DNA of 64,000 nt from a virus, in UHGV virus genome UHGV-0096064. One strand, 5' to 3'. Below the pieces are notes generated by a model that had not been told where the DNA came from, did no database searches, and saw nothing but the letters and a program-made list of their open reading frames with translations. The first letter of the stretch is position 1. Each line of letters opens with the position of its first letter. The translations under genes and the position numbers were made by a program. Positions 1-45,780 of the stretch are shown one piece after another.

Positions 1-1
1 G

Positions 2-15713: not shown

Positions 15714-15716
15714 GGC

Positions 15717-29592: not shown

Positions 29593-31199
29593 TACATTAC
29601 CTTTCGCAAAATTTTGCGGCGTTGCGCCAACCTACGGACGACTTGCGAAGCCTTTACGTCATTGGCTGTTTCTTCCCGGCAAATATACATGGCCCCATAC
29701 TGGACGGCGTCTGCGATGTGGGAGTACATATTTTTCTCAGGCTTGGCATCATATGCCGCGCCCACGGAACCCATAACCCGCAAACGCTTATACCTATACC
29801 CACCCTGAAACGCCTTGATTGTCAAGCTGCAATGTGGCGATATGATGATGCCGCCAGCATTTTTGTTCAAGAGCTGGTCGACGGCACGGATACGAGTCTT
29901 CGGGTCATTGGTCTTCGGCATATACACCTCGAACCCTTTCTGCTCAAGGTGGGTACTTGGAGCCAATCCCGTATAGGCGTCCTTGGCGTTGGCCGGGTCA
30001 CAGGCAACAATGATGTTGCACTTCGGATACTTGGACAGGATAAGGGGCATGAACGCCTGTTCAATGAACGCCTCCATCCCAAGGCCCTCACCATACAGCT
30101 CATCGACAATAGCCCACCGTCCCTGATTCTGTTGGAAGAAAACCGCGCCCGGATGGATGCCGGAAGTGTCGTACCCGATAATGGTGGTGCTGTACGGAAT
30201 GGGCTCAATCTCGTTCCGGGCGACATGGGTGTCGTACTTGAACATGGGCCACACGGGTTTACCATCCCTCATCGGGACGTCGAGCATACAGAACAGGGAG
30301 TCGATTTTATCCGTCCGGCCTTCAAGCTGCCACGCCGCCATCTGGTTCCGGTAGTAGTCCATCCCCTTCTCACGAAGAAACTCTTCCTGTTTCTCGACGG
30401 GCCATTCGTTGAAATCGTCCGGCTTCGCCTTGGCTCCGAGATTCCGCAGGTTCTCGGCGTTGGGGTTCGTCTCGTACCGGACATTACCCAAGTCGTCTTC
30501 AATCTTGAACGCTGCCGGGGGCTGCTCGAATATCTCCCAATTCGGCTCAGGGTGAGCTTTCATGTGCAGGAGGAAGTGACCCTGCGGCGGCTGGTTGGTA
30601 TCAATCAGGAGGCCAGCATAGGAGCAACCGCCCATGTCATCAGAAGGATAACGACCCACACGGCCCAGAGCACTGACGAGGATTTCATAGTCGATACTGG
30701 TCGCTTCGTTGATGATGGCGAATGACCAGTTCTTTGACTTTAATTTTTCAGCATCCTCGGCAGCTTGGAGGGCAATCAGCTCGAACTCGACCTGCGCGAT
30801 TGTCCCCATTCCCGGCTGCCACGGCTGGTGGAATTGCAGCCACTCATAGGAACCATCACCCACCGGGAAACGATAGACCCCCTTGATGGGAGAACCACCG
30901 AGACGGATGGTGCCGAACTTCGACGGAAAAACCTCCAGAATGCTCTCTCGCGTCGTGGAAACGAGTTCAGGATATGTACCACGGATAACCCCGATTCGTG
31001 TGTACCTGACCCCATCAGGGGCCGGATTTTGGGCAAGACAATAAAACTTCGCGTCGTTCATAATCATGCAGGTCTTGCCCGAACCATACGGCCCGAAAAT
31101 CAACTTCACGACTGCATCCGAGTCGTGGAACTTTATCCCCGTAGGAGAGGGTATGTAATTGAAATCAGGAATAAACATGAGGTTACTCCGTATAATCAA
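29592..31199 (-). CDS. terL: terminase large subunit
   Basis: Walker A GPYGSGKT near the N-terminus, Walker B-like VDELYGEG, and an Asp-rich C-terminal nuclease-like region. 535 aa. Confidence 0.85.
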   Translation of the reverse strand: MIIRSNLMFIPDFNYIPSPTGIKFHDSDAVVKLIFGPYGSGKTCMIMNDAKFYCLAQNPAPDGVRYTRIGVIRGTYPELVSTTRESILEVFPSKFGTIRLGGSPIKGVYRFPVGDGSYEWLQFHQPWQPGMGTIAQVEFELIALQAAEDAEKLKSKNWSFAIINEATSIDYEILVSALGRVGRYPSDDMGGCSYAGLLIDTNQPPQGHFLLHMKAHPEPNWEIFEQPPAAFKIEDDLGNVRYETNPNAENLRNLGAKAKPDDFNEWPVEKQEEFLREKGMDYYRNQMAAWQLEGRTDKIDSLFCMLDVPMRDGKPVWPMFKYDTHVARNEIEPIPYSTTIIGYDTSGIHPGAVFFQQNQGRWAIVDELYGEGLGMEAFIEQAFMPLILSKYPKCNIIVACDPANAKDAYTGLAPSTHLEQKGFEVYMPKTNDPKTRIRAVDQLLNKNAGGIIISPHCSLTIKAFQGGYRYKRLRVMGSVGAAYDAKPEKNMYSHIADAVQYGAMYICREETANDVKASQVVRRLAQRRKILRKVM

Positions 31200-31759: not shown

Positions 31760-34700
31760 TTACTTGAACCGGATGAGGGCCGCAGCTGCAGTCTGGTTCG
31801 TGTTACCGGACACGCTAATCTTCACAGCCTTGCCAGCCAGCGCGGAGATGGCGGTGGCGCGGGTGCCAATCGTCACCGCAGAACCCGAAGAGAACTCAGG
31901 CTCAATGGAGAACGTCAGCGCATTGGCCCCGGCACCGTCCGCTTCCTTGGCGATAAGCTGCACCGTGGAGCGATCACCCGGAATGAAGGTGTGGATGATC
32001 GGAATCGTAGCACTGGACTCGAAGGTGTAGTACAGCGGCATGTCGGCATAATCAGCCGCATCCACAGCATTCGTGACCTGAGTCTTCAGCCAATCCGCAT
32101 TCACAGACACCCCGGCAGCTTCCACCTTGATACCGCCGTTGACCTTGGCATTCACCGCCACAGACTTGGTGCCCGTACCGGAGATGGTCACACCGTTCCC
32201 GGCGGCCACCTTATCGCCCGTGTCCACGTTTTCCGCCAACCATGTGGTGTTGACGGAGATACCGCGGGCGTCGACGGTGATACCACCATCGGCCTTAGCC
32301 TTGGCAGTGATGGTCTTCGTGGTCGTACCGGAAATGATCACACCGTTCCCGGCGGCTACCTTGTCGCCAGTATCCACGTTTTTAGCCAGCCAATCGACGC
32401 TGACCGAGATACCCGTGGAGTCGACCAGAATACCGCCGTCCGGCTTCGCCTTGGCAGCCACGGTCTTCGTCCCGGTTCCGGTCAGGGTGATGCCGTTGCC
32501 AGCCGTAACCTTGTCGCCGACCTTACCGGCCAGCCAAGATGCATCGACATAAACACCACTGGCATCGACCACGAGACCACTGGCAGCCTTCACCTTGACG
32601 GTAATCGTCTTAGTGTCAGTACCCTTAACGATCACACCGTTACCCGCAGCGACCTTGTCCCCGGCGGTAGTATGTTTGGCAAGCCATGCGGCATCAACAG
32701 AGACACCCGTTTCATCAACGACAATGCCGCCGTCAGTTTTGGCCTTGACTTGGAAAGTCGAAAGCGCCAGTTCAAGACCATCACCCGCTTCATAATCACG
32801 CACATGCTTCTTGAAGAAGCTATACGTGATAATAGCCTCATTAATGGGATTCTGAGGCGTCATCGGCGCGACACCGTAAGGTGAAGGTGTATCTCGCAAT
32901 TCCGTAAAAATAGGAAGCACAACACCGAGAGAAGCCACTTGGTCATCCGCAGCTCCCTGAACAATATTCATCAGGATAGTGTGGTCTGTGGGAGAGACAT
33001 TATGGCTAATGCTGGACAGCAACTTGCCGCCACCAACCCCGTAAGTCGTAACCAGATTGGCCCGGCCTGTTTCCTTAGTCAGAGCCGAACTCACCACAGC
33101 AATATGCTGAGTAATAGTCCCGTCCTGATTCAGCTTACCAGTAAAAGCCTTAAGGTCGGCAATGGTCTGATCACCGGAAGTACGGACAACCGTATCATCC
33201 ACGGCGATGCCAGCGGCAGCCACCTCGATACCGTCACCCGCCTTGGCGGAGATAGTATCGGAAGCAATGGCAATACCATTGCCAGCCTTGTAGTTGCTGG
33301 CCGCATGCTCAGACAGCCACTCGGTGTCCACGGAGATGCCGTCAGCGTCCACGATGATGCCGCCCTCAGCCTTGGCCTTGGCCGCAACCGTCTTGTTCGT
33401 CCCGTTCGCCGTGATGGACACGCCGTTACCAGCGACCACGGTGTCACCGCCAGCATGGTCTTTCAACCACTCCTCGTCGATGAACACGCCGTTCTCGTTG
33501 ACGATAAGGCCGCCATCAGCACCCGGCTTCACGGAAATGTTTTTGGTGGTATCTTGATCAACGATGGTAACACCGCTACCAGCGGAAACGATGTCACCCT
33601 TGTCATGCTGCGCCAGCCAGTCCGTATCAATGTGGAGGCCATAGCTGTCGACCAACAGGCCCGCATCCAGCTTGACCTTGGCGTTGATGGTGGTGGTGGT
33701 GTCAGTCTCGGCACTGAAACTGATACCGTCGCCCGGCTTGTACTCCATCACCTTGGGCAAATCGTCGGCAGACAGGTACGCACCCTTGTCAGAGCCTACG
33801 TTGATGAGGTTGCCCTCATCACTGGAGACCACGTTGACGGTGAACTTCCCTTCGGAGTCGAACGTCAGAGCGTTTTCCTCGTCTTTGGTGGACACCATCG
33901 TCGACATATCGACACTCAGCTCATCAGCTTCGGTGAAGCTCAGGTGTCCATCAGCGGCAGCCTTCACGGAAATCTTGAACCCGTTGAAGATGATACCGTT
34001 GCCAGCGACATAATCGCCGCCCAAGCAGTGTTCCTCAATCCACTTCTCGTCGATGTAAACGCCGGAATCGTCGATGAGGATACCGCCAGCATCCTTCGGC
34101 TTGACCGCGATGGACTTGGCATCCTCGCCCTCGGTCACGGTAATGCCGAGACCAGCGTCGACCTTGTCGCCAAGCTGAGGCGTGAGCCACTCGGTGTCCA
34201 CACCCACGCCATTCTCGCCGACAGTCAGGCCGCCTTCGGGGTCAACCTTAACGGAAACGGTCGCATCAGAACCGGACAGGGAGACGTTGATACCATCCCC
34301 GGCCACAGGTTTCGGCGCATGTTCGCCAAGCCACTCCTCATCCACATAAACGCCATCGGCATCGGTACGGATACCGCCGCCAGCTTTCGTCTTCGTGGCA
34401 ACGCCATCGGCGTCCTTGCGCAGACCCCCAAGGGGATTCAGCTTCACGGCCAGACCACCCTGAGAACCTTCGGAAGAGGCACCAGCGGCGAGGCACTCAA
34501 GGCCGGACGTGTTGTCGTTGGCGGCGGTCAAGTCCATCTTCACGGCGATAGTCTTGACGAACTCGTCATCCCCAGTAAGGGCGATACCACAACCCGCCTG
34601 AACCTTGTCGGAACGCTTGGCGAGCCAGTCCTCATCAATACTCAGACCATTGGCCGCGTTGCACAGGATACCACCGTCTTCATGGAGACGGACGATAATC

Positions 34701-36175
34701 TGCTTCCCGTCCATCTCGATGCCGCAACCGGAAGTGTACGGGTCAACCCGAAGCTGACCGGACTCGTCGACATACAGGTCGTTATCGTCGCCACCAGTAC
34801 CCACAATCTTGCTGGTGTCCACGGCGATGCCGCCGTCTTCACCGAGCTTGAGGGTGCCGTCCTCGCTCAGATGCACCATGATGGGAGACACCGACGCACC
34901 GGAAATGGTCTGAGCCGCACCGAACATGAGGCCGGACTTGGCGATGAGGGGCAGGTCGAGGTACCCATTGTGGCAGGCAAGGCCGTTGTAGGGCTTGCCC
35001 GTGGTGCCGTCGCCGCGCAGGAGCACGGAGATGACATCGTTGGCAACCTTGATGCCGCAGCCACCAGTGTAGTTGTCGATGAAATCATCCACGTTCACAT
35101 ACACATCGACCACGTTGCCGTTCGACAGGAGATAGACGAAGCGCATATACTTGCCGGGGATGATGCCGACGCCGGGGGTGAAAGTGGCGGAACCCGTCAG
35201 CTTCATGCCAGTCAGCGCCTTCCAGTTGATGGTCAGGAGAGACCCGTCAGCGAACCGGAAGGTGGTCGGCTGCGTGGAGACAACGGCGGACTCACGGTGG
35301 TCTTCGAGGAAGGAGGCGCGGGCCACTTCGGGCCACAGGCCGGAGTGCTCGGCATCAAGCTCATACTCGAAGTCGATGGTCTGTTCGACGTTCAGCTTCG
35401 TGTGGAACTTGAGGCCCATCCCGCCGTCGAAGTCGTAGTCGCCGTACTTCATCGCGATGGACAGCATGTAGTCGCCTACCGTGTCCTCTTCGCCGGAAGC
35501 GTCAGGTTTGCCGTCCACGATGTAAACGGCGCGCAGGGAAGAGGTCGAGGTCATGATGGTCACGGTATCAACCACGACCCCATCATGCCCGGTGATGTTG
35601 AGCTTGCCAGTGTTGGCATCGTACTCAACGCCGACCTCGGAAGAAATCTTCCCGTTGTTCCCCTCGTAGAGAATCTTGTCGTTGCGGTTGACCAGCGAGT
35701 CGAAGTCGGCGTAAGCGCCGCCGTCTTCACCGCGTTCGAGAAGGTTGCCGTCATCCTTGGAGATGACTTCGAGAACCTCGAACACGTCCTCACGGGTCAG
35801 CTTGATTTTGCCGTCCACCTCACTGATTGTCAGAAGGTTGATGACGGCGTTGGACAGGATGTCGTTCCCGTCAATCTTGACGCCGCCATCGGAACCGAAG
35901 CCGAGCATGTTGTCCGCGTCGGCGGAAATCTTCGGTTCGGCGGGCAGGGCGAACAGCTTGCCGTCCACACCGAGCTTGATGATGTTGTTGTCCGTCGCGC
36001 TGACGAAATCGTCAGCCTTCACGGACAGGCCGTCAGCAAGGTTCTTGAGCAGGTTCACGCCGTCCGTGGACACGGGGACGAAAACGGGACTGAGGAGGGA
36101 ACCCTCGGTCGCCGATACGTGTTTCTTCCCATCGACAGACAGCGTAACCGGAGTAAAAAAGATAGCCACAGGCAT
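31760..36175 (-). CDS. tail fibre or appendage protein (1471 aa) with many tandem ~42-aa beta-repeats
   Basis: Repeated units of the form DGGIxVDxxGVxVDxxWLaxhxxxGDKVAAGNGVxIxGTxTKTITxKAKA occur 8-10 times (e.g. GGIVVDETGVSVDAAWLAKH, GGILVDSTGISVSVDWLAKN, GGITVDARGISVNTTWLAEN). Lies upstream of the terminase genes. Confidence 0.75.
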   Translation of the reverse strand: MPVAIFFTPVTLSVDGKKHVSATEGSLLSPVFVPVSTDGVNLLKNLADGLSVKADDFVSATDNNIIKLGVDGKLFALPAEPKISADADNMLGFGSDGGVKIDGNDILSNAVINLLTISEVDGKIKLTREDVFEVLEVISKDDGNLLERGEDGGAYADFDSLVNRNDKILYEGNNGKISSEVGVEYDANTGKLNITGHDGVVVDTVTIMTSTSSLRAVYIVDGKPDASGEEDTVGDYMLSIAMKYGDYDFDGGMGLKFHTKLNVEQTIDFEYELDAEHSGLWPEVARASFLEDHRESAVVSTQPTTFRFADGSLLTINWKALTGMKLTGSATFTPGVGIIPGKYMRFVYLLSNGNVVDVYVNVDDFIDNYTGGCGIKVANDVISVLLRGDGTTGKPYNGLACHNGYLDLPLIAKSGLMFGAAQTISGASVSPIMVHLSEDGTLKLGEDGGIAVDTSKIVGTGGDDNDLYVDESGQLRVDPYTSGCGIEMDGKQIIVRLHEDGGILCNAANGLSIDEDWLAKRSDKVQAGCGIALTGDDEFVKTIAVKMDLTAANDNTSGLECLAAGASSEGSQGGLAVKLNPLGGLRKDADGVATKTKAGGGIRTDADGVYVDEEWLGEHAPKPVAGDGINVSLSGSDATVSVKVDPEGGLTVGENGVGVDTEWLTPQLGDKVDAGLGITVTEGEDAKSIAVKPKDAGGILIDDSGVYIDEKWIEEHCLGGDYVAGNGIIFNGFKISVKAAADGHLSFTEADELSVDMSTMVSTKDEENALTFDSEGKFTVNVVSSDEGNLINVGSDKGAYLSADDLPKVMEYKPGDGISFSAETDTTTTINAKVKLDAGLLVDSYGLHIDTDWLAQHDKGDIVSAGSGVTIVDQDTTKNISVKPGADGGLIVNENGVFIDEEWLKDHAGGDTVVAGNGVSITANGTNKTVAAKAKAEGGIIVDADGISVDTEWLSEHAASNYKAGNGIAIASDTISAKAGDGIEVAAAGIAVDDTVVRTSGDQTIADLKAFTGKLNQDGTITQHIAVVSSALTKETGRANLVTTYGVGGGKLLSSISHNVSPTDHTILMNIVQGAADDQVASLGVVLPIFTELRDTPSPYGVAPMTPQNPINEAIITYSFFKKHVRDYEAGDGLELALSTFQVKAKTDGGIVVDETGVSVDAAWLAKHTTAGDKVAAGNGVIVKGTDTKTITVKVKAASGLVVDASGVYVDASWLAGKVGDKVTAGNGITLTGTGTKTVAAKAKPDGGILVDSTGISVSVDWLAKNVDTGDKVAAGNGVIISGTTTKTITAKAKADGGITVDARGISVNTTWLAENVDTGDKVAAGNGVTISGTGTKSVAVNAKVNGGIKVEAAGVSVNADWLKTQVTNAVDAADYADMPLYYTFESSATIPIIHTFIPGDRSTVQLIAKEADGAGANALTFSIEPEFSSGSAVTIGTRATAISALAGKAVKISVSGNTNQTAAAALIRFK
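32140..32650. repeat. nucleotide-level tandem repeats (~126-bp unit, ~4 copies) inside the tail fibre gene
   Basis: Near-identical stretches recur at 126-nt spacing, e.g. gataccgttcccggcggcNaccttRtcgcc...gtccacgtttt...gccaRccaNNc. They correspond to the 42-aa protein repeat. Confidence 0.5.
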
Positions 36176-36355: not shown

Positions 36356-36706
36356 TCAGTCGTCCGAAACCGTTCGTACCACAGCTTCTTCGTTTGCCGC
36401 TTGGATGAATCTGATTTCCTCAAACCTGTCATTGGCAACCTCCAGCTTGTCGTCATACTGACGAATGATAAGGAGTAAATCCTCAACCGTACAGATGGTA
36501 TCACCCACGACAGGATGAGGAATAGGAGCAAGCAAATACTCCGGCACCCGCGTCGTATTCACCTTACTCACTTTCAGGGAAGGCGTGCAGCCCACGCACA
36601 AGCTCAGGAGGGATAACAACAGACAGCACGCTGCGAACCTCTTGGCTCTGCGCAGCCATTTTAGACAGACGCTTCTCGAAAGATAGGAACTGTGTCTGGC
36701 GTTCAT
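36356..36706 (-). CDS. putative o-spanin (outer-membrane lipoprotein Rz1-like), overlapped with the i-spanin gene
   Basis: Signal-peptide-like LRRAKRFAACCLLLSLLSLCVGC with a lipobox-like CVGC. Overlaps 36564..36923 by ~143 nt in a different frame. Follows the holin. Protein size and true start are uncertain. Confidence 0.45.
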   Translation of the reverse strand: MNARHSSYLSRSVCLKWLRRAKRFAACCLLLSLLSLCVGCTPSLKVSKVNTTRVPEYLLAPIPHPVVGDTICTVEDLLLIIRQYDDKLEVANDRFEEIRFIQAANEEAVVRTVSDD

Positions 36707-36923
36707 GCTCTCTATTCTCCAACCGTTGCGTCGCTTCTTCCACCCGTGCCGAACGAGCTATTTCTTCTGTCAACACCATATTCATGTCTTGCAGGGATTC
36801 TGTCAACAGCTCGTTGCGCTCACGCAAACTCTCCAACTCCCTGTACCCAAAATAAACCGCCAAGGCAACGACGCCGACAAACACCGCGCCTATGACGGCG
36901 GCAACCTTTTCCACTTCGGACAT
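36564..36923 (-). CDS. putative i-spanin (Rz-like)
   Basis: N-terminal transmembrane helix VAAVIGAVFVGVVALAVYFGY followed by a charged coiled coil (RELESLRERNELLTESLQD...). 119 aa. Immediately downstream of the holin. Confidence 0.55.
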   Translation of the reverse strand: MSEVEKVAAVIGAVFVGVVALAVYFGYRELESLRERNELLTESLQDMNMVLTEEIARSARVEEATQRLENREHERQTQFLSFEKRLSKMAAQSQEVRSVLSVVIPPELVRGLHAFPESE

Positions 36924-37471
36924 GGCGGCACCTTCCCGTTGAGGGCCTCTTCGACATGGCGGCGCACTTCCGGGTCATTCAACTCCACGCTGATATGCGC
37001 GGCCACCCGCTGCCGAAGGACGCCCATAATCTTCTCCAGCACCGGATGGATGGGACAGCCGAGGCTCCGCAGGTTGTTGATGATGCTCGCGGCTTCGGTG
37101 AGGCAGCAACAGAACAGACCCCAATTCACGGCGTAGATGATGACCCCGGAAGTTCGGAAAAAGGCATAGCAAAGAAGCCCCGTGATGACCACCAGCGCCA
37201 TATAGGTCAGGAACTTGCGCATCCAGTGGAACAGGTACTTGGGGTCGAACGTCCCGTAGACTCTGGACTTCAACACGCCCAAGACGAGATCGGCGGATGC
37301 GAACAGGATGTAGATGCCGAAGACGTTGACATCACCATAAAGCACCTCGGTGAAGAATGTAGCGACAGCGGCTATAACCATTTTAGCGTAGTAACCAAAC
37401 ATAAGCTGTCCTGCATAATATACGGTGCTGTCCCGAAGGCTCTCCAAGGACTCTATTACTGCATTCTTCAT
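36890..37471 (-). CDS. putative holin (multi-pass membrane protein)
   Basis: 193 aa with 3-4 hydrophobic helices (MVIAAVATFFTEVLY, GIYILFASADLVLGVL, LTYMALVVITGLLCYAFF, VIIYAVNWGLFCCCL). Sits between the putative hydrolase and the spanins. Confidence 0.5.
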   Translation of the reverse strand: MKNAVIESLESLRDSTVYYAGQLMFGYYAKMVIAAVATFFTEVLYGDVNVFGIYILFASADLVLGVLKSRVYGTFDPKYLFHWMRKFLTYMALVVITGLLCYAFFRTSGVIIYAVNWGLFCCCLTEAASIINNLRSLGCPIHPVLEKIMGVLRQRVAAHISVELNDPEVRRHVEEALNGKVPPCPKWKRLPPS

Positions 37472-37474
37472 AGA

Positions 37475-38083
37475 TTACCCCTCGAAATCCGAACGCTCAA
37501 GCAACGTATACGTAAAAGAATTTCCATAGACCGACCGCGCTTTCTCCAATACTTCAATGAACTTCTTGTATTCCGCCGCCCCCGCGCCCACCGTGCAGCC
37601 CTCTGACCAGTTGTCCACCTGAATGGAGGTGTGGGTCTTGGACGACCAGTGAATGTTGATGCCGAACATCCCCCACTGGATGTCCCCATAGTCCATATAC
37701 AAGTCCATGTTCTTGTCCCGGTATACGGCCACAGGCTTTATCTGGACGAGAGCCTTCTCCTTGCCCTTGTGCAAGCCCAGAGCATAGGCACCCCTGTATT
37801 GCCCCGGCACCATAACGGCCCGGCCATAGGATGGCGGGCTTATCATCGGCCCCTTGCCGGGGTCGGTGGTGCAGGCGAACCTGTCATCCACCCATTCACC
37901 ATCCACCTTATATAACAGGCACAGCGTATCGTCAAATTTGTTGGTGACTTGGCGGCTGTTTCGGATGCCTACCACGTTGGTATTGTAGTCGCCCTCGGTA
38001 AACACGGCATACCCCTTGCGGCGCATGACCGAGAAAATATCGTCAAGGCTGTAGTCGACCATAGGATTCTCCTTTTGGAGCAC
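37475..38083 (-). CDS. putative peptidoglycan hydrolase (endolysin candidate), family unresolved
   Basis: 202 aa, first gene of the lysis cassette. Contains IHWSSKTH...WSEGCTVG, reminiscent of the YkuD (L,D-transpeptidase-fold) H..S.GC catalytic signature. No canonical lysozyme, amidase or CHAP motif seen. Confidence 0.35.
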   Translation of the reverse strand: MLQKENPMVDYSLDDIFSVMRRKGYAVFTEGDYNTNVVGIRNSRQVTNKFDDTLCLLYKVDGEWVDDRFACTTDPGKGPMISPPSYGRAVMVPGQYRGAYALGLHKGKEKALVQIKPVAVYRDKNMDLYMDYGDIQWGMFGINIHWSSKTHTSIQVDNWSEGCTVGAGAAEYKKFIEVLEKARSVYGNSFTYTLLERSDFEG

Positions 38084-38301
38084 AGGGTAAAATAATTATG
38101 GGAAACCCTCAACAAAACCGTTGACATCCGGGACGAATGCGTCTATATATGGCTCACCGAAAAGGGAATGAACCACGAGCGGCCTGCCGAAGCTGGCTGG
38201 ATTGACGGGGACTCGTAATGGAAGACGGTCAGCTTGATGCTTCCCGCAACCGGTTTATATCTCTCTTTCGTAGAACTGCGCGATACCCACTATCAGCAGA
38301 A

Positions 38302-38356
38302 CCCCCTTGGAAGGGTTTTACCACCAACTTGTTCCTTCCAAGGGGGCTTTCTTTTG
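38302..38356. terminator. strong intergenic hairpin between the LRR paralog (38368..39474) and the lysis cassette; T-tract on the plus strand
   Basis: Perfect 13-bp stem CCCCCTTGGAAGG...CCTTCCAAGGGGG with a 19-nt loop, followed on the plus strand by CTTTCTTTTG. Both flanking genes are on the minus strand. Coordinates +/-2. Confidence 0.45.
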
Positions 38357-38367
38357 CCTATTGGCGC

Positions 38368-39474
38368 CTACCGCCAACTAGCTGGAATGTTTGAATAATT
38401 TGCCGCATTGGTACAATTCATGAAAGTGAAGTCATGGGTCGGCGTGTTCGGGTACTTCGACCACAAGGCCGGGACGCTCGACGTAATGGCGGCATCATAC
38501 GAGAACGAATGGGTGAAGTCCTCGACCGATTTGGTCGTATCGAACAACGATTCCGGCACCGTGATTAACCCTGTACAATTATTGAACACATAGGCGAAGT
38601 TGGTCACTTTGGTCGTGGTGCTGAACAGGCCAGACGGGACGACGATAATCTCAGGACACTCCATGAACGTGCCGTAAAAGCTGGTCGCCTCGGTGTTATT
38701 CTTGAAAAGCGTCGACGGGACTTGAACCAGATTGCTGCACCGGGCGAACGTCCCGGCGAAAAGCTGCGCCTTGGAGTTGTTGGCGAACAGATTCTGCGGC
38801 ACCTCACGCAACCCGTCGCAGCCGTCGAAGCAATAGGAAAAGTCCACGACATTGGGGTTCCCCGCGAACAGGTCAGCCGGAATGTCCGTCACCTTCACCA
38901 GCCCATGGAAGCAGTTCTGGAACCCGGTCGCCGCCTTGCAATTGGCAAACAAATTCTCCGGGATGGATGAAATCAGGGAACAGCCGTTGAAGCTGTTGGA
39001 GAACCCGGTACACTCCGTCCACAGGTCAAAGAGGCCCACCGGGATGGAGCGGAGATGCGAGCAGCCGTAGAAGTGGGAATAGGGGTCGGTCAGCACCGGG
39101 GGCAAGCTGTAGGTCTCGGCACCATCCGGCCCGATGTTGACAAGGGTCTCCCGAAAGAATTGGGTATGCGGGATAGCCGCCCGTTCAGGGTTGCTTCCCA
39201 CGAACTGGACTTGGCGCATGTCCTTTGCCCAGATGCGCATGGTGTAAACGCCGGACTGGTCATAGTCGTGGATGAGCTGGTCGGTATCGCTGCTTCCGGC
39301 CTTGACGGTCGTGACCTTGCCATCTCCCCACTCAATGAAGGTATCAATCAGGAATACCCCCCTCTCGTCTTCCAGATAACCGAGCGGCGCGCTCGTCCGC
39401 TTTCCCCCGGATGTGGTGGCCCCGGTGTCCACGACGAACACCATCGGCATCATATTGTCTCTGTATCCATACAT
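38368..39474 (-). CDS. BspA-type leucine-rich-repeat protein, paralog 3 (368 aa from the MYGYRDN start)
   Basis: C-terminal ~23-aa repeats F.GC..L..IP..LF.NN....F...F..C. N-terminal domain (TGATTSG..., WGDGKVTTV) and C-terminal ending YSNIPASWR are shared with the other two paralogs. The ORF track extends to 39567, but the homologous start MYGY lies at 39474 with an AGGA RBS. Confidence 0.75.
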   Translation of the reverse strand: MYGYRDNMMPMVFVVDTGATTSGGKRTSAPLGYLEDERGVFLIDTFIEWGDGKVTTVKAGSSDTDQLIHDYDQSGVYTMRIWAKDMRQVQFVGSNPERAAIPHTQFFRETLVNIGPDGAETYSLPPVLTDPYSHFYGCSHLRSIPVGLFDLWTECTGFSNSFNGCSLISSIPENLFANCKAATGFQNCFHGLVKVTDIPADLFAGNPNVVDFSYCFDGCDGLREVPQNLFANNSKAQLFAGTFARCSNLVQVPSTLFKNNTEATSFYGTFMECPEIIVVPSGLFSTTTKVTNFAYVFNNCTGLITVPESLFDTTKSVEDFTHSFSYDAAITSSVPALWSKYPNTPTHDFTFMNCTNAANYSNIPASWR

Positions 39475-39488
39475 AACGGCATATCCTA

Positions 39489-39504
39489 TGTGTGTGTGTG
39501 TGTG
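39489..39504. repeat. (TG)8 / (CA)8 dinucleotide microsatellite immediately upstream of the RBS of the LRR paralog 38368..39474
   Basis: tgtgtgtgtgtgtgtg read directly from the sequence. On the coding strand of the LRR gene it reads gggatg(CA)8 TAGGATatgccgttATG. Confidence 0.85.
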
Positions 39505-39584
39505 CATCCCTTGACGAATCTGCCTGGCAGTGCATACTACCCCCAAAGAACACCCATTGTCCAACACCCAATACAGGAGCCAAT

Positions 39585-40172
39585 ATGGACAGACTCATTT
39601 GCGGCTACCCGGTCGTGCCCAAGGCGAAAACGCTCATGGTGTACTCCGACCCCGACTATACCAGCCCCTACCCCGGATATGCTCTGGAAGAAGTCATGAA
39701 CTTCCGTGCGGACGACAAGCCCTATGTCGGCCCCGTCGAGTTTGAATACGACGACAGCATCACTGGCCCCGCGTCCGTGACGACCGACAGCAAAGGGAAA
39801 GCCACCGTCACCCTCACGCCGAACAGAGATGGCCTCTCCATCATCACATGCAAATTCGGGGGGGGAGAGTACGAACTCAGGTACAGTGTGCTAAACCATC
39901 AGGTGAGGTTCGGCGTCAGAACCATCTACCAGAACCGGAACACCTCCACAACGCTCTGGGTCAACAATAACTTGCAGGAATACAACGGGACGGTCTCCAT
40001 CAAGTACCCGGCAGGGCTTACCGGGCCGACCAGCGGTAAGATAAGCGCCGGGGCGATGGCAATCACCATCAACGGCTCCACGCTCGGACGCAAACAGGTC
40101 GACGTCCAGTTCGGCGTGCAGACCGCCTACTGCGCCGTGGAAGTCATTAAAGACCCGATGCCTCCTCAGTAA
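39585..40172 (+). CDS. hypothetical secreted or Ig-like beta-sandwich protein (cargo gene on the opposite strand)
   Basis: 195 aa from the ATG with a CAGGAG RBS (the ORF-track start at 39492 is upstream of this). Followed by its own intrinsic terminator. Opposite orientation to the flanking LRR genes. Confidence 0.5.
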   Translation: MDRLICGYPVVPKAKTLMVYSDPDYTSPYPGYALEEVMNFRADDKPYVGPVEFEYDDSITGPASVTTDSKGKATVTLTPNRDGLSIITCKFGGGEYELRYSVLNHQVRFGVRTIYQNRNTSTTLWVNNNLQEYNGTVSIKYPAGLTGPTSGKISAGAMAITINGSTLGRKQVDVQFGVQTAYCAVEVIKDPMPPQ

Positions 40173-40180
40173 CCCGTACA

Positions 40181-40213
40181 CCCCCTGTCATTCCGGCAGG
40201 GGGTTTCGTTTTG
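40181..40213 (+). terminator. rho-independent terminator after 39585..40172
   Basis: CCCCCTG-tcattccgg-CAGGGGG followed by TTTCGTTTTG, 9 nt after the stop codon. Confidence 0.55.
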
Positions 40214-40281
40214 AACAGGATTGACTATCCATTACCCCCCTTAAAATCCTTTGATAAACCCTATCATCAAAGGATGGAACC

Positions 40282-40914
40282 ATGTACGGATATTTGGAAA
40301 ACAAGGGCAGGGTCATGGGAAAACTCGCCTTCTCCTGCTCTTGGAACTTCGTCGGCGACCTCGCCAACAACCCCCGGTACAACGCGCTAGTGACGACGCC
40401 GAACCTCCTCTTCCTCTCGACGTCCTATGAAGAGCCGGGAGCGGATGACGGGATGGAGTTCACCTCAAACGGCCTTGTCTGCACCGAGGGGTCGATTGCC
40501 ACGAAGACGCAAACGGATTCAAGCTGGACAATCTCAGGACTTACGGGGTCACAAATCAACATGGGCGCGGGTTCGGCCAATGCCTTCAACATCATCAACT
40601 ACCTGACCGCATGGGTCTGGAGTCCGAAGAAGGAACAGTGGTATTCTCTGGGCACACTCCCCTCGTATGCACCGGGGTCTCCGACTTCCGTCAACACCGA
40701 CCAGCACCTGTCGATGGATAGGCAAGGCGAGGTGAGCTACCTCGAAGCCAAGGAACCCTCTGACGACCACCGCATCATCCGGTGGGAAGACTTCGACTTC
40801 CACTTCCAGATGACGGCGGTCTATACGGACAAGTACGAGAGCTGCAACTTCAAGGAACCCATCGTGAACGTGCGCTTCGGCGCGCCCTACGAGTTCGACC
40901 CCGACTACTTCTAG
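40282..40914 (+). CDS. hypothetical protein whose N-terminus MYGYLENKG echoes the LRR paralog starts
   Basis: 210-aa plus-strand ORF between minus-strand LRR genes. Begins MYGY, as do the three LRR proteins (MYGYRDN, MYAYLNHKD, MYGYRDNEPRES). Confidence 0.5.
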   Translation: MYGYLENKGRVMGKLAFSCSWNFVGDLANNPRYNALVTTPNLLFLSTSYEEPGADDGMEFTSNGLVCTEGSIATKTQTDSSWTISGLTGSQINMGAGSANAFNIINYLTAWVWSPKKEQWYSLGTLPSYAPGSPTSVNTDQHLSMDRQGEVSYLEAKEPSDDHRIIRWEDFDFHFQMTAVYTDKYESCNFKEPIVNVRFGAPYEFDPDYF

Positions 40915-41020
40915 AAAAGGCCGGAATGGGGCCTAGGATGGCGATAACGGGTCAAGATAGCGTTGGATAAGGGATGAGGGATTGCGAGGCTCTGGAGGGC
41001 GTTTCTGCCCCGGAAAAGGT

Positions 41021-41053
41021 GAACCCCTCTCAAGTTGCAGTTGAGAGGGGTTC
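41021..41053. terminator. perfect 13-bp hairpin between the converging plus-strand cargo genes and the minus-strand small genes
   Basis: GAACCCCTCTCAA-gttgcag-TTGAGAGGGGTTC. Confidence 0.45.
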
Positions 41054-41158
41054 GGAGGACTGGTCATGTCCATACGTTGGAGTACGTATACGGCAGGAGA
41101 CCGAAATCAGGATGTTTCCTTAATTACCCCGCCAGTATACCCCGGACGGGGCTTGAAG

Positions 41159-41293
41159 TCAACAGCCGCCCCATCGCTCCATCGCGTAGATGAGGATGCA
41201 GGCTATCACCCATCCCCAGAAGATGCCGCTGCACGCGGCCCAGAACGGGACGCACAGGAAGACGAACGTGAGGAACAAGATGTAAGCCATACT
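41159..41293 (-). CDS. possible 44-aa hydrophobic peptide (below the ORF-track cutoff)
   Basis: Hand translation: MAYILFLTFVFLCVPFWAACSGIFWGWVIACILIYAMERWGGC. Two predicted transmembrane segments. Tandem with 41292..41483. Confidence 0.3.
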   Translation of the reverse strand, partial: SMAYILFLTFVFLCVPFWAACSGIFWGWVIACILIYAMERWGGC

Positions 41294-41483
41294 AAAGAGT
41301 TCTCGTGGCCCAAAGGATGAAGGCGATGCAGGCCAAAAGGCTCACCAGCACGGCGCAGGCAATCGCGAAATCATCCGAGGGCACGGCCTCCCGGTTCTGG
41401 CAGGGGCACTGGACGACGATGGTTTGGCACACAGGCTGGCACTGGACAGGCATCGGATACTGAACGGACGGAGAAGCATTCAT
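41292..41483 (-). CDS. possible small Cys-rich membrane protein
   Basis: 63 aa. Cys-rich N-terminus (CQPVCQTIVVQCPCQ) and C-terminal transmembrane helix ACAVLVSLLACIAFILWA. Downstream of the disrupted LRR gene. Confidence 0.35.
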   Translation of the reverse strand: MNASPSVQYPMPVQCQPVCQTIVVQCPCQNREAVPSDDFAIACAVLVSLLACIAFILWATRTL

Positions 41484-41523
41484 ATCGAGGACTCCTTTGG
41501 GTTAAATGGTTCGAGAACGGATG

Positions 41524-43135
41524 TTACTTCCAATCGTCGGGAATGTCAACGTAGTTGGAAGCACTGGTCACGTTGCGGAAACACCTGCCATGGTCGGCGA
41601 CATCAGGGTATGTCGTCCATAGCGTGGGTACGGCGCTTGTTACCTGTGAGCAACCGAGGAATGTACTTACAAAACTTTCCACTTTGCTCTTATTGTCAAA
41701 CAACCCGGACGGGATGCTCTTTAGAACCTGCCAATTCGCGAACGTATTCTGGAAAGATGTGACATCCGGCTGGTTCCTGAACAGTCCGGCGGGAATCTCC
41801 ACACCAGCCCACCACTCGGAAAAGGCGTTATAGAAGTTGGTCGCCTTGATATTGTTGGCAAATATGTCTTCCGGTATATGCGTCATCTTGGACAAACCGG
41901 CAAACACGCTGCCGAAGTTAGTAACCTTGGTGTTCTTAGCGAAAAGGTTCGCAGGGATTTCTCCCACGATACTCTGACATCCGCTGAACGTGGCGAAGAA
42001 CACCGTGGCATCCGGCTAGTTGTCGAACAGTCCTTCGGGTATCCCCGTTATCAGGCTGCAATCGGAGAACACATAGGAGAAATCGGTAATCTTGGGATTG
42101 TTGGCGAACAATTCCGCCGGGATAGTACCCGTCACCTTGTAGCAGCTTTCAAACAGATACTCGACATCCACGAGTTCCGTCATGGCGCTCAGGAGATTGC
42201 CCGGAATGGAACCCGTGAGGTTCCTGCAATTGTCGAACAGATGGGCCACGGTGGTGACTTTCGTATGCTTGGAGAACATGGAGGGCATGGGATTGGCCCA
42301 ACTCGAACAATTTTGGAAGGTCGATGCAAACGAAGTCACTTCGAGATTGGTGTCGAATAATGTCGTGGGCACCGAAACCAGCGAGGTGCAACCATAGAAC
42401 GTGTTGGTGAAGTCGACGACTCTGGTGTTCTTGGCGAAAAGTCTGGACGGGATGGTGGTGATGCCGCACGTTGAGAATGTACCGTAAAAAAGTCGTGACG
42501 TCCGGGCAATTATCAAAGAGGTTGTTGGGAATGGCCTTGATGCCGAGGCATCCATAAAAACAATCGGAAAAACTGTTGACCTTGACGGTCTTGTCGAAGA
42601 GACCGGATGGGATTTCCGTCAAACCGGAACAGGTGTGGAACGTGGAGTTGAAGGTCTCGGTGTTCGGATTGCCGTCGAAAATCCCGGCGGGGATGGCCTT
42701 CAATTTGGAGCAGCCGTAGAACGCGCCCTTGAACGCGGTCGGGACAAGTTCCGGAAAGCTGTATCCGGTAGGGTCTTTCGGCACGATGCCGACAAGCGTG
42801 TCCTGCCACAAGTCCATGTTCTTTATGGCGTTCGTAAACGAGCACTTGCCGAGGTCGTCCGCCGTCACTCCTATGACGTACTCGCCCGGCGTCGCGTAAG
42901 TATGCGTGGCGTACTCGTCGAAATAGGCATCACTATACTCGATGCCCTTGGGGATGGTCGTAATGGTGCCGTCGCCCCAATCCACTTGTACGGCAGTCTG
43001 CGTTTTATAACCAGACATCATATTCTCGAACGCATGGATGGAGCTCATGGCTTTCGTATTGCCCGATGTCGTAGCCTCGGTATTCACGACACAATAGACG
43101 TATTCCCTATCCTTATGATTCAAATAAGCATACAT
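41524..43135 (-). pseudogene. BspA-type LRR paralog 2, disrupted by a +1 frameshift in a T6 run (~42484) and an in-frame TAG (~42013)
   Basis: Three consecutive ORF-track pieces (42149..43159, 42016..42555 and 41524..42003) together make one LRR protein homologous to its neighbours. The frame changes at gtcacgacTTTTTTacgg (VTTF|LRY versus the expected VTTFYGTFSTCG). Then LFDN-TAG-PDATV(M)FFATFSGC. Confidence 0.7.
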
Positions 43136-43157
43136 AATGATACTCTCCTTATTTTCC

Positions 43158-43167
43158 ATATATATAT
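43158..43167. repeat. (AT)5 tract in the upstream region of LRR paralog 2
   Basis: On the coding strand: cgctcTTTGACTgaatccccATATATATATggaaaatAAGGAGagtatcattATG(MYAY...). A TTGACT -35-like hexamer lies 9 nt upstream of the tract. Confidence 0.6.
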
Positions 43168-43211
43168 GGGGATTCAGTCAAAGAGCGACGCCATGTGAGG
43201 TCAGGAGGGGA

Positions 43212-44927
43212 CTACTTCCAGTCGTCAGGAATGTCGGCGTAGTTGGTCAACTTGCTGCAATTTCTGAAACATTTAGTTCCATTGGCGTCAGGATGAGTGA
43301 CCCACAAGTCGGGAGCTGTTCCAACCAGCTTGTAACAATTCTCGAATATCTGGTGGAAATCCTTGATATTCGGATTGTTCACGAAGAGGTTCGTTGGCAG
43401 CGTCGTCAAATTGGTGCATCCATTAAACATCATCTCCACGTCATCCAGAGCAGGATTGTTGTCAAACAACCCTTCCGGGATGGCACCCTCCAACGTGTTC
43501 AAACTATAGAAAGCGTAAGCCAAATTCTTTAACTTGGGGTTGTTGGCGAACAGCTTGGCGGGAATGGAGCCGTTGAAATCACAACCGTAGAACACGCTGT
43601 CGAGATACGTTAGCTCCGGGCAATTGGCAAAAAGATTCTCAGGAATGGGGCCGTTCAAATTGCATACCCTGAACAAACCGGAAAAAATCTCGGCAAGCGG
43701 GTTATGAGCGAACAACCCTTCCGGAATGGGGCCCACCAAACCATCACAACCATAGAAACAGCCGGAGAAGTTCGTCACTTCGGGGCAATTGGCAAAAAGG
43801 TTTTCAGGGATAGTTCCTGTGAGTCCCTCGCAGAACCGGAAGGTATCCGAAAACGTCTGCACCTTCGTGCAATTGGCAAAGAAGTTCTCAGGAATGGCAC
43901 CAGTGAGCTTCTCACATTCATAGAACGTCGCCTCGAAAGAAATAACTTCGGGGCAATTGGCGAACAAACCCGCAGGCAGGGAACCCGTCAGGCCCTTGCA
44001 ACCGTAGAATGCAGAGACAAAGGTACCCGCCTTCCGGTTATTGGCGAAAAGATTCTCAGGAATGGAGCCAGTGATATTTTCGTCAAAATAGAACAATCGG
44101 TCAAAAGTGTAAGCTATGGTGTTGTGGGCAAAAAGGTTTTCAGGGATAGGCCCTGTCAATCCAGGGCAGTGGCTGAATACATAGGCGAACGATGTCACAT
44201 TGGGATTGTTGGCGAAGAGATTCTCAGGAATTTCAGTCAGTCCCTCACAACCATTGAACACGCTGTCAAACTTGTAAACTTTTGGACAATTGGCAAAAAG
44301 GTTTTCAGGGATAGACGTGATATTTTCACAGCTATAGAATGTGGAAGCAAACGACTCGACCTTGGTGTTCTTGGTGAAAAGGTCTTCGGGAAGCGCACCC
44401 GTAAGTCCAAGACAATAATAGAACGTATTTTCAAAAGTGGTGGCGTCTACGTTTTTGTAGAATATGCCTTTAGGAACCTGCGTCAACTTCTTGCAACTAT
44501 AAAAGGCATAAGCAAGTCCGTCATGCCGGAAAACAGGCAGCGAATAGGACTCGGCACCCTTGGGGCCAATCCCGATAAGAGTTCTTCTATAGACATTCCA
44601 TTCACTCTGGTTGATGTCATAACCATGCAACTTGCAGACGCTGAAATCATCAGCGTAAACAGTCACAGTATATTCGCCGGGGGTGGCATAGTCATGCGTG
44701 GAATATTTATCCCAATACTGTGAATAAAACTCCGTACCCTTGGGAATTTCGGAAATTGAACCATCACCCCAATCAATAGTAATTGCCGTCAGGGATTGCT
44801 CATCAAGACCAAAGCTATTGAATGAATATACTGGAACCACAAACTCGGTATCACCCTCGTTGGTGGCCTCGGTATTTATAAGAAAGATAAGGCTTTCACG
44901 CGGCTCATTGTCACGATAACCATACAT
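43212..44927 (-). CDS. BspA-type leucine-rich-repeat protein, paralog 1 (571 aa from the MYGYRDN start)
   Basis: Long array of ~23-aa repeats (FxxCxxLTGxIPENLFANNxxxxxFxxxF). The N-terminal domain and the C-terminal YADIPDDWK are shared with the paralogs. The ORF track extends 78 codons further upstream (to 45161) through the promoter-like sequence. The homologous start with an AAAGGAG RBS is at 44927. Confidence 0.75.
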   Translation of the reverse strand: MYGYRDNEPRESLIFLINTEATNEGDTEFVVPVYSFNSFGLDEQSLTAITIDWGDGSISEIPKGTEFYSQYWDKYSTHDYATPGEYTVTVYADDFSVCKLHGYDINQSEWNVYRRTLIGIGPKGAESYSLPVFRHDGLAYAFYSCKKLTQVPKGIFYKNVDATTFENTFYYCLGLTGALPEDLFTKNTKVESFASTFYSCENITSIPENLFANCPKVYKFDSVFNGCEGLTEIPENLFANNPNVTSFAYVFSHCPGLTGPIPENLFAHNTIAYTFDRLFYFDENITGSIPENLFANNRKAGTFVSAFYGCKGLTGSLPAGLFANCPEVISFEATFYECEKLTGAIPENFFANCTKVQTFSDTFRFCEGLTGTIPENLFANCPEVTNFSGCFYGCDGLVGPIPEGLFAHNPLAEIFSGLFRVCNLNGPIPENLFANCPELTYLDSVFYGCDFNGSIPAKLFANNPKLKNLAYAFYSLNTLEGAIPEGLFDNNPALDDVEMMFNGCTNLTTLPTNLFVNNPNIKDFHQIFENCYKLVGTAPDLWVTHPDANGTKCFRNCSKLTNYADIPDDWK

Positions 44928-44957
44928 ATTGGTTCTCCTTTTTGTCCTTTCTATACA

Positions 44958-44967
44958 AGAGAGAGAG
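44958..44967. repeat. (AG)5 / (CT)5 tract in the spacer between -35-like and -10-like hexamers of the LRR paralog 1 promoter
   Basis: Coding strand: ccagtccTTGCCAgCTCTCTCTCTtgTATAGAaaggacaaaAAGGAGaaccaatATG. The spacer between TTGCCA and TATAGA is only 13 nt. Gaining two CT units would give 17 nt. Confidence 0.6.
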
Positions 44968-45257
44968 CTGGCAAGGACTGGAGCGGGACAGGGTGTGGGC
45001 CGGGAACTGGACTGGAAATTTCTCCGAAAAAATTTTGGAGGGGGTGAATGCTGTGGATTCAGACGGGGGTCAACGAAGCCCCCACCCCCCCTCGGACTGG
45101 ACTCATCTACGAACTCGGCGTCGACGGTGTCGCGCAATGTAGGTTGGCACAGGAATTGCATAGGAAAAGTTGCTCGAAGTCGCGAGCGTTCCTATATATG
45201 GAGTGGCCGGGGCGCGCCAAGTCCTTCGTCCAAATCCCCCGCCGGGCCGTCCCTACC

Positions 45258-45285
45258 CTCGACGCCCTCGACGCCCTCGACGCCC
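45258..45285. repeat. 3x direct 9-bp repeat CGACGCCCT
   Basis: acgccctcgacgccctcgacgccctc, at the leftward edge of the control region. Confidence 0.5.
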
Positions 45286-45427
45286 TCCCGCCCGCCTCAC
45301 TCCATCACCTTGATGAAGCGGCCTGACGCGCCGCCTGCTCCACGTTCGCGGCTCATCCCTACCTTATATATACCCTGACCTTTTCGCCGCAAGCTGACGC
45401 GCTTCCCGTCCTGCTATGTCATCAGCT

Positions 45428-45459
45428 CCATCCAGTCCCGCCAGTCCCGCCAGTCCTAC
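45428..45459. repeat. 3x direct repeat CCAGTCC(C/T)(G/A)
   Basis: tccagtcccgccagtcccgccagtcctaccag. The core TCCAGTYC also recurs upstream of several early genes. Confidence 0.5.
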
Positions 45460-45469
45460 CAGACAACCA

Positions 45470-45780
45470 AGTGCACAATGTAATATCAACAAACCTATAT
45501 TACATTGTTACCTACACTGTAGTATTACACTGTTACAGGTGTTATATTGTAGCATTACACTGTAACGCGCAATGTACTTTTACAATGTAACACCTGTTAC
45601 AATGTAATGTTATTGTAAATTACATTGCACACTTGCTTACATTGTTATGGCATTGTTTTTTACATTGTTGCAGGTGTTACATTGTTTTTTACAATGTAAG
45701 TTACACTGTAAGTGTAATTACATTGCATGTAACATTGCGTCGCGCAATGTAAATTTTTACAATGTAATTACACACAGCGC
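45470..45780. repeat. dense array (>20 copies in ~300 bp) of a palindromic motif TTACA(A/T)TGTAA; iteron or operator array and candidate replication origin or master control region
   Basis: Read directly from the sequence: ...ttacattgttacc tacactgtagtattacactgttacagg...ttacactgtaacgcgcaatgtacttttacaatgtaacacctgttacaatgtaatgttattgtaaattacattgc...tttttacattgttgcaggtgttacattgttttttacaatgtaagttacactgtaagtgtaattacattgcatgtaacattgcgtcgcgcaatgtaaatttttacaatgtaattaca. GC content drops from ~60% to ~35% here. Confidence 0.7.

Follow-up and report, generated by a model that had tools for sequence, protein, structure and literature searches.

The 64,000-nt sequence analysed here (UHGV virus genome UHGV-0096064, hereafter the window) is nearly the whole of a human-gut metagenome scaffold (ENA ERZ28661800 scaffold_341, 64,226 bp) and carries, on its minus strand, three paralogous genes for leucine-rich repeat (LRR) proteins, designated A, B and C (coordinates in Table 1). 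We favour, at roughly even chances, the interpretation that these genes encode virion-displayed, fibre-associated accessory adhesins of a ~64-kb gut podovirus. This interpretation is based on the adhesin anatomy of the proteins, on a population pattern resembling that of host-range genes, and on the tail-fibre and baseplate context of homologous genes in relatives and in cultured phages.

Anatomy and family of the LRR proteins

The first-pass annotation had placed three paralogous minus-strand genes at these positions, and the sequence similarities are beyond chance: A and C are 33% identical (E 2e-59), and A is 38% identical over its full length to the intact version of B from the close relative L022 (E 1e-122). 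As that annotation had stated, all three have in common an N-terminal region starting with MY[GA]Y as well as a C-terminal NY..IP..W[KR]; the N-terminal region extends over about 130–137 aa. The array of Cys-containing repeats between these two parts is also present, but its period is 27–28 residues (81–84 nt) and not the 23 residues that had been proposed. The units follow the consensus F..F.GC..LTG.IP..LF.NN..VT. and are non-identical, retaining a conserved F/C/L/P/F pattern; their number differs between the paralogues, as expected, with about 14 in A, 13 in B and 7 in C. In A, a beta-sandwich (about aa 1–100) and a low-confidence linker (about aa 103–127) precede the repeats, which are followed by a C-terminal cap ending in NYADIPDDWK.

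The AlphaFold2 model of A, built from a 40-sequence alignment, shows a solenoid of LRRs between a small beta-sandwich at the N-terminus and a cap at the C-terminus, with a predicted local distance difference test score (pLDDT) of 89, a predicted template-modelling score (pTM) of 0.86, and residues 160–571 above 90. Foldseek searches against the PDB matched A to LRR ectodomains, namely those of plant LRR receptor kinases and Toll (E about 1e-10, probability 1.0). Thus, both the model confidence and the structural matches bear out the LRR fold.

The designation "BspA-type" in the first-pass annotation holds only in part. Kinship with the PARCEL/DUF285 repeat class (Roske et al., 2010; PMC2996958) is probable, but the 23-aa unit is not found, and the score of the Pfam model LRR_5 (PF13306), although this is the top Pfam hit of A, is 26.6 (E 6e-6) compared to a gathering threshold of 27.7; a B fragment reached 16.4, and no LRR_5 match was obtained for C in the Pfam scan. 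DUF285 (PF03382) remained under its cut-off in every scanned piece of the window (22.0 versus 25 for the B fragment), and the NCBIfam PARCEL model TIGR02167 (cut-off 30) yielded 22.6 for A and was passed solely by A2 (31.4), the slot-A allele of L022. Most full-length homologues carry a precomputed PF03382 assignment, phrog_9915, which is annotated as of unknown function, matches A with an E value of 7.7e-91, and hundreds of proteins with 30–47% identity have the same repeat consensus. The label that seems to fit best is a 27–28-residue variant of the PARCEL/DUF285 class, for which the NCBI product name is "BspA family LRR surface protein". Long repetitive open reading frames (ORFs) also run antisense to the arrays, on the plus strand, at 43704–44723 (339 aa, with an IGKKVFRD-type period), 41878–42360 and 42635–43198. 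They fit the dyad-symmetric DNA of PARCEL repeats and are probably not genes.

The homologues that were read individually fall into Bacteroidales lipoproteins, with a Cys lipobox and Mfa-like, BACON or PKD domains, and Firmicutes pilin-like proteins with a pilin-type N-terminal helix. The whole phage module, from the WGDG beta-sandwich to the DIP..WK cap, corresponds to the C-terminal end of these bacterial proteins; the phage proteins start about 12 residues ahead of the shared module and have no signal peptide. The first-pass annotation had raised the question of whether the N-terminal domain resembles a fibre or baseplate attachment domain. Because the module, including this beta-sandwich, also caps the bacterial lipoproteins and pilin-like proteins, a function of the domain as a phage anchor is not supported. 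Judged from these comparisons, the LRR proteins are built like extracellular ligand-binding adhesins but lack the bacterial export and stalk parts. A bacterial scaffold (L023; ENA ERZ28653917 scaffold_1348, positions 1–15761) harbors six tandem paralogous LRR lipoprotein genes (740–961 aa) that belong to this family, adjoining glycoside hydrolase genes and an integrase gene; this cluster is a bacterial counterpart of the paralogue expansion.

Variation of the LRR genes among near-identical phages

Fourteen related contigs were recovered, and each sample is represented by one consensus sequence. These relatives differ in repeat number and in the content of intact copies. B, which had been described as a single gene, is in fact broken into three ORFs (42149..43159, 42016..42555 and 41524..42003) by two lesions, that is, a frameshift in a run of six T at 42486–42491 (T5 in relatives) and an in-frame TAG at 42016–42018 (CAG in relatives). 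Deletion of one T from the run restores the reading DVTTF/YGTFSTCG, and L022, the flanks of which are 99% identical to those in the window, has both T5 and CAG and encodes an uninterrupted B of 536 aa. The T6 run and the TAG codon are present together in contigs L025 (a JGI sample) and L026 (a third ENA sample), which rules out a sequencing or assembly error; contigs L003 and L027 (run ERR911970), which may stem from the very sample of the window, were not counted among the independent samples. Because the same lesions recur in contigs from other samples, B is a genuine pseudogene in this lineage. Programmed frameshifting or stop-codon recoding was also rejected, given T5 and CAG in the relatives, the use of TAG as the terminator of A, and the fact that no tRNA genes were found in the window.

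At slot A, the segment 44761..43167 is replaced in L022 within flanks that are 99% identical on both sides. The two alleles, A (571 aa) and A2 (482 aa), have the first 56 residues up to WGDG in common and are otherwise 38% identical, and the right boundary of the replacement is the motif CCATATATA ahead of B. A third allele, A3, of about 770 aa is found in L030, although its intactness is uncertain because runs of N interrupt its reading frame in the scaffold. In L026, a GAG-to-TAG change creates a nonsense codon at residue 438 of A. Slot B, in which the window, L025 and L026 carry both lesions (frameshift and nonsense codon), is uninterrupted over the covered residues 114–536 in L028, truncated in L030 as well as L031, and occupied in L001 by a truncated A2-like N-terminus and a chimeric ORF of 500 aa instead. 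Slot C contains two repeats fewer in L030.

Simple-sequence tracts contribute to this variation. The poly-G tract near the start of C leaves the reading frame open at lengths of G5 and G8 (two contigs) and disrupts it at G7, G9 (two contigs) and G10, while an A-interrupted AG6 version is present in the window and two other contigs. The (CA)n tract in front of C has 3, 5, 5, 5, 5, 6, 8 and 10 copies in related contigs. In the window, it adjoins a −35-like hexamer of the divergent gene for a 195-aa Ig-like protein. Between the window and L022, three frame-breaking indels are located in the 5.8-kb LRR module compared to none in 14.4 kb of flanking sequence used as the control, where the differences in length are three indels between genes, a 3-nt indel in the fibre gene that preserves the frame (at 33702) and one gap at the end of an aligned block. 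Single knock-outs of A, B or C occur in different samples, but wherever a genome could be inspected at all three slots, at least one copy is free of frameshifts and stop codons; in L030, this copy is A3.

Compared with L001 (5–7% divergence), A has a ratio of non-synonymous to synonymous substitution rates (dN/dS) of 0.22 and C one of 0.32, versus values of 0.08–0.15 in the lysis and fibre genes. When the closest genomes are compared, C exhibits 12 non-synonymous and 0 synonymous changes. The ratios are raised but remain below 1, indicating that A and C are constrained and yet fast-evolving. In the genomes compared here, this pattern of allele replacement, repeat change, knock-outs and dN/dS is as usually seen for host-range determinants. 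The simple-sequence tracts, in turn, suggest contingency-type switching as a hypothesis, drawn solely from consensus sequences compared between samples.

Two established mechanisms of programmed diversification were rejected. A diversity-generating retroelement target is excluded because no near-identical pair of template and variable repeats exists in 37400–45600 and the substitutions in C and the gene for the Ig-like protein are scattered and affect every base; no reverse transcriptase domain was detected among the ORFs scanned, which were a part of those in the window. An invertible segment of the Mu G or P1 C type is excluded since the orientation is the same in all relatives and no invertase was found. 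The locus contains three weak inverted pairs of 16–31 nt, none of which flanks plus-strand ORFs.

Counterparts in other phages and the probable role of the LRR proteins

The family has counterparts in other phages, the lack of which would have counted against the first-pass annotation, namely phrog_9915, many matches in BFVD, and more than 20 viral contigs in IMG/VR, which were identified by a scan with a degenerate C-terminal motif (NY.DIP..WK) and encode both stand-alone and fused proteins. The similar viral proteins in BFVD include two in one uncultured podovirus, a crAss-like "internalin-like" protein and giant-virus DUF285 proteins. LRR genes are also present in two relatives, L078 (large terminase subunit [TerL] and portal 47% identical, lysin 42%) and L059 (lysin 50% identical; LRR protein and C 47% identical). 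In each case, the LRR gene belongs to the late operon and immediately follows a fibre gene in which an Mtd_N domain, the N-terminal domain of the major tropism determinant, scores above threshold; in L059, it is followed by a gene for a Big_3_5 protein that is weakly similar to the 195-aa Ig-like protein of the window. At 23 LRR loci on viral contigs, 101 neighbouring ORFs were scanned, and those with a name among the 25 families listed were almost exclusively tail, minor tail, tail fibre, tape measure and amidase/endolysin families, in addition to one virion structural and one major head family.

Cultured phages also link the domain to tail structures. The protein gp35 of a Klebsiella P2-like phage combines Tail_P2_I (131 bits), Big_2, LRR_5 (41.3) and DUF285 (32.3), all above their cut-offs, and its gene adjoins that of a tail collar fibre. 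In Phapecoctavirus ESCO5, gp226 bears an LRR domain at its C-terminus and is encoded within a multi-fibre (tail-fibre) locus, at which close phages diverge according to a published comparison. For phage Goslar, LRR domains on virion fibres have been proposed as host-recognition elements in a 2026 preprint. A paper from 2020 (PMC7765460) still called the LRR repeat family undescribed in phages. The "variable host-recognition module" of the first-pass annotation receives comparative support from allele replacement, simple-sequence-linked knock-outs, the fibre-gene context in relatives and the fusion of LRR and gpI domains in a cultured phage.

The layout of the locus in the window differs from the position at the head of the late operon that had been assigned to the three genes. 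Plus-strand ORFs and terminator-like hairpins separate A and B, C, and the lysis and structural genes from one another, although the lysis cassette and a 1471-aa fibre gene are indeed located downstream of the LRR genes. A and B point away from an AT-rich intergenic region (45.2–47 kb), with plus-strand early genes on its far side, and C, which has its own leader, appears to be monocistronic because two terminator-like hairpins are located directly behind it. Only three copies of the motif CCATATATA are present in 64 kb, compared to 0.07 expected, all on the minus strand and upstream of A, B and the lysin gene; close relatives retain it, and distant ones lack it. The motif is a candidate for a shared phage promoter element, and the copy at 38144..38152 is the probable start of the lysis/structural transcription unit. 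Being common to A, B and the lysin gene, the motif would tie the timing of A and B to that unit. Shine-Dalgarno sites are present upstream of both A and B.

According to the favoured interpretation, each LRR protein would be a single ligand-binding module consisting of beta-sandwich, solenoid and cap, which bacteria mount on stalks. The phage proteins, having no signal peptide, would be made in the cytoplasm together with the late proteins and would ride on the virion, most likely on or beside the conserved tail fibre, serving in accessory receptor binding or surface adhesion. Diversity could arise by several routes: recombination would swap whole alleles between anchors (the WGDG codons and the intergenic CCATATATA motif), gain or loss of repeats would alter the length of the array, and simple-sequence tracts (poly-G in C, the T-run in B), together with point mutations, would silence single copies. 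An extension of this model, which we put forward only tentatively and regard as somewhat doubtful, is a phage contingency system in which stand-alone LRR tip adhesins on one fibre are individually switchable and swappable, so that each population contains mixed receptor specificities. Switching would rely on simple-sequence tracts, both within the genes (poly-G in C, T-run in B) and in the leaders, where (CA)n and (CT)n are found, and swapping would rely on cassette recombination at the WGDG and CCATATATA anchors.

Several observations weigh against virion-displayed adhesins. No anchor or adaptor domain common to known fibres was found in the LRR proteins, and attachment to the virion tail, the ligand and late expression are inferred. 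In the window, the LRR genes are separate, moron-like units with interposed terminator-like hairpins and opposite-strand ORFs, and A and B abut the early region. The frequent pseudogenes imply that each LRR copy is dispensable. For relatives with 65–77% identical TerL, no more than 10 kb of upstream sequence was retrieved, in which A, B, C and the fibre had no match; since this flank reaches only the equivalent of slot C, LRR genes farther upstream are possible in these phages. Finally, the scan of neighbouring genes was qualitative and had no control set.

Some of these points would be accounted for if A, B and C were non-virion accessory proteins of the moron type that act within the infected cell or, once released at lysis, bind a protein of the host or of neighbouring cells, with effects such as host takeover, exclusion, or biofilm formation and aggregation, but not adsorption. 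A separate promoter-like motif and terminator-like hairpin accompany each unit, opposite-strand ORFs are interspersed, A and B diverge from the early gene block, an anchor domain was not found, single copies are dispensable, and LRRs are general protein-binding scaffolds. Nevertheless, we consider this role rather unlikely, given that the LRR gene follows fibre genes in the structural operon of L078 and L059, homologues in cultured phages are fused to baseplate or tail proteins, CCATATATA is also present in the lysin promoter region, and the bacterial homologues are of the extracellular adhesin type. The PADLOC defence models gave no match either, but this is a weak test because the library omits anti-defence proteins.

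Alternatively, the proteins might be displayed on the capsid or tail as decorations comparable to Hoc-type Ig domains and bind mucus or gut surfaces instead of a bacterial receptor, which would help to keep the phage in places inhabited by its hosts. The context in relatives and cultured phages, which is that of tail fibres and baseplates and not of capsids, speaks against this possibility. The combination of a beta-sandwich/PKD-like domain with LRRs and the adjacent Ig-like protein do resemble decoration modules, the LRR proteins are dispensable and variable, and in lactococci a surface protein with DUF285 has a part in adhesion to mucin (PMC5071367). Turnover of alleles among 99%-identical phages is, however, more typical of host-range determinants, and we regard decoration as improbable. 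Still less probable, in our view, is that the genes are horizontally spreading PARCEL repeat passengers that decay without any role in the phage. According to published descriptions (PMC2996958; PMC10720644), PARCEL/DUF285 arrays are horizontally dispersed and linked to mobile DNA, and the many pseudogenes and rearrangements, as well as long antisense ORFs typical of palindromic repeat DNA, would be expected of such passengers. Yet the dN/dS values of 0.22–0.32 at 5–7% divergence reflect purifying selection on A and C, at least one copy without frameshift or stop codon persists in each genome with all three slots seen, and conservation of both terminal domains, as well as of the location close to fibre and lysis genes, extends to relatives with only 47% TerL identity.

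PARCEL/DUF285 LRR proteins are widespread in phage genomes (PHROG 9915; listed for numerous uncultured and jumbo phages). Annotation had already revealed the repeat family and its occurrence in phages; new are the cluster of stand-alone paralogues in a podovirus and the allele exchange and simple-sequence-linked inactivation among natural near-clones. To our knowledge, no role has been demonstrated experimentally in any phage for this class of LRR adhesins. The locus represents a natural experiment, in that near-identical gut phages differ almost only in their LRR alleles and active copies. If the LRR proteins are receptor-binding proteins, a non-trimeric, solenoid-type adhesin class would join the host-recognition repertoire of phages, and phage specificity would be tied to an adhesin module that gut bacteria carry on fimbriae and pili. 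Simple-sequence-driven switching of phage adhesins would then extend beyond Campylobacter phages, with a bearing on host-range prediction from metagenomes and on host-range engineering.

Genome setting and closest known systems

The minus strand of the window harbors a late block of the podovirus-like type, which, besides the genes listed in Table 1, also encodes internal virion proteins. Upstream of the terminase gene are a 190-aa gene, then the 1471-aa fibre gene, Rz-like spanin ORFs, the holin gene and the endolysin-like gene. The plus strand, from about 47 kb onwards, contains small early-type ORFs and replication genes, among them those for a family A DNA polymerase, an SNF2 helicase and a PD-(D/E)XK nuclease.

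Table 1. Positions of the LRR genes, sequence tracts, candidate signals and neighbouring genes in the window
Feature	Coordinates	Strand	Remarks
LRR gene A	43212..44927	-	intact, 571 aa, one terminal stop (TAG)
LRR gene B	41524..43135	-	pseudogene in the window
LRR gene C	38368..39474	-	intact, 368 aa, 7 repeats, one terminal stop
Poly-G tract in C	39357..39364	-	codons 37-40; GAGGGGGG here, A-interrupted
(CA)8	39489..39504	-	15 nt upstream of the ATG of C; only dinucleotide run of such length in the window
(CT)5	44958..44967	-	about 30 nt upstream of the ATG of A; (CT)4 in L022
CCATATATA motif	45193..45201	-	upstream of A
CCATATATA motif	43161..43169	-	26 nt upstream of the ATG of B; 3' boundary of the replaced allele segment
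CCATATATA motif	38144..38152	-	upstream of the endolysin gene
Two terminator-like hairpins	38302..38347	-	directly 3' of C, followed by the lysin gene
Two small hydrophobic ORFs (63 aa, 43 aa)	41159..41483	-	3' of B; conserved in relatives
210-aa ORF	40282..40914	+	starts MYGYLENK; frameshifted in L022, deleted in L001
195-aa Ig-like protein	39585..40172	+	Big_3_5/Big_1 below cut-off; divergent from C; dN/dS 0.23
Lysis cassette	36356..38062	-	endolysin-like 37475..38062, holin (PF05105) 36890..37471
Rz-like spanin	36564..36923	-	overlapped by lipobox ORF 36356..36706
Fibre, 1471 aa, repetitive	31760..36175	-	97-99% identical in relatives; dN/dS 0.12
Large terminase	29592..31199	-
Portal-like protein	27622..29592	-
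Major head protein	22865..23824	-

A unit of about 45 aa (..GNG..I....K.I.VK....GGL.VD..GV.VD..WL..) is repeated many times in the 1471-aa fibre, the homologue of which in L078 is encoded by two genes (709 aa and 435 aa). This fibre is a possible carrier on which, we infer, the LRR adhesins might dock. A 2516-aa protein (4928–12478, minus strand) matches a virion RNA polymerase PHROG with residues 82–429 (E 1e-13). Internal virion proteins and a 405-aa protein that has a lysozyme/peptidase domain are encoded next to it, and this neighbourhood suggests an N4-like or ejection-protein arrangement.

Between the LRR genes, the 63-aa and 43-aa ORFs behind B encode hydrophobic, membrane-like segments and are followed by a hairpin at 41024–41050, and a strong terminator-like hairpin (40180–40204) is located after the gene for the 195-aa Ig-like protein. 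This protein shows 7 non-synonymous and 0 synonymous differences from L022. The MYGY start of the 210-aa ORF is reminiscent of the LRR proteins, but the match of 6 of 10 residues (E 0.31) is not significant, and kinship was rejected. Between A and the early genes, the AT-rich segment 45470–46460 is densely populated with TTACA(A/T)TGTAA-type and ACATTGCG motifs in both orientations and includes a 31-nt inverted repeat (45532–45562 / 45570–45600); this array could be an origin with iterons or an operator array for a phage regulator. Short tandem repeats are present upstream of A, namely three copies each of GGCGTCGAGG and GGGACTGGC (45255–45290, 45430–45460), and near them a 9-nt and a 1-nt indel (46515, 46471) distinguish the window from L022.

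The Rz-like spanin and lipobox ORFs suggest a Gram-negative host. The bins of metagenome-assembled genomes (MAGs) in which TerL relatives were found are those of Bacteroidaceae and Sodaliphilus, and one is that of a methanogen, probably by mis-binning. The latter relative (L080; GTDB JAFQBW010000009.1) is a 64-kb contig from goat caecum that has a TerL 76% identical to that of the window and was binned with a Methanocorpusculum MAG; the contig probably represents the complete genome of a related phage that was wrongly assigned to this archaeal bin. No cultured phages with DNA near-identical to the LRR region were found.

The closest known proteins are the bacterial members of the PARCEL/DUF285 class, which resemble A in the consensus F..F.GC..LTG.IP..LF.N...VT., the WGDG beta-sandwich and the ..NY.DIP..WK cap, and which align at the above-mentioned 30–47% identity over up to 100% of A. 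In contrast to them, the phage proteins lack a signal peptide and a fimbrillin, BACON or pilin stalk, and their unit of 27–28 aa compares with 25–26 aa in canonical PARCEL repeats, with scores just below the Pfam and NCBIfam cut-offs. Tannerella BspA and other LRR_5 proteins (TpLRR type) have a repeat unit of about 23 residues. The likeness to them lies in the class of Cys-containing bacterial LRR adhesins, whereas the phage protein A falls below the gathering threshold and has a period of 27–28 residues.

Among phage proteins, gp35 of Klebsiella phage ST16-OXA48phi5.4 belongs to the same LRR class (31–34% identity over about 400 aa) and to a tail module, but its LRR part is covalently fused to a P2 gpI baseplate wedge domain, whereas the window proteins stand alone and have no recognisable anchor. 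The Phapecoctavirus proteins (ESCO5 gp226, AV125/AV126) possess a C-terminal LRR part of about 195 aa of the same class and are encoded in a locus of multiple receptor-binding proteins that varies among close phages; they differ in being long multi-domain fibres (RCC1-like, Big_2) of a myovirus. With respect to switching, Campylobacter Fletchervirus phages are said to have hypermutable poly-G tracts in their receptor-binding genes (Sorensen et al., 2021, Cell Rep 35:109214). C is similar in having a 5'-proximal G tract of in-frame and out-of-frame lengths in a putative adhesin gene; unlike in the Fletchervirus phages, however, its variation is seen between metagenome assemblies only and not in a clonal lineage, the window carries AG6, and the fold and the phage family are different. 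Finally, the tip adhesins of the T2/T6 gp38 type and gp63.1/gp66 of phage G7C exemplify small exchangeable adhesins, or several receptor-binding proteins, on a conserved fibre or adaptor. The LRR proteins would be functional analogues of these systems, with which they share neither sequence nor fold similarity.

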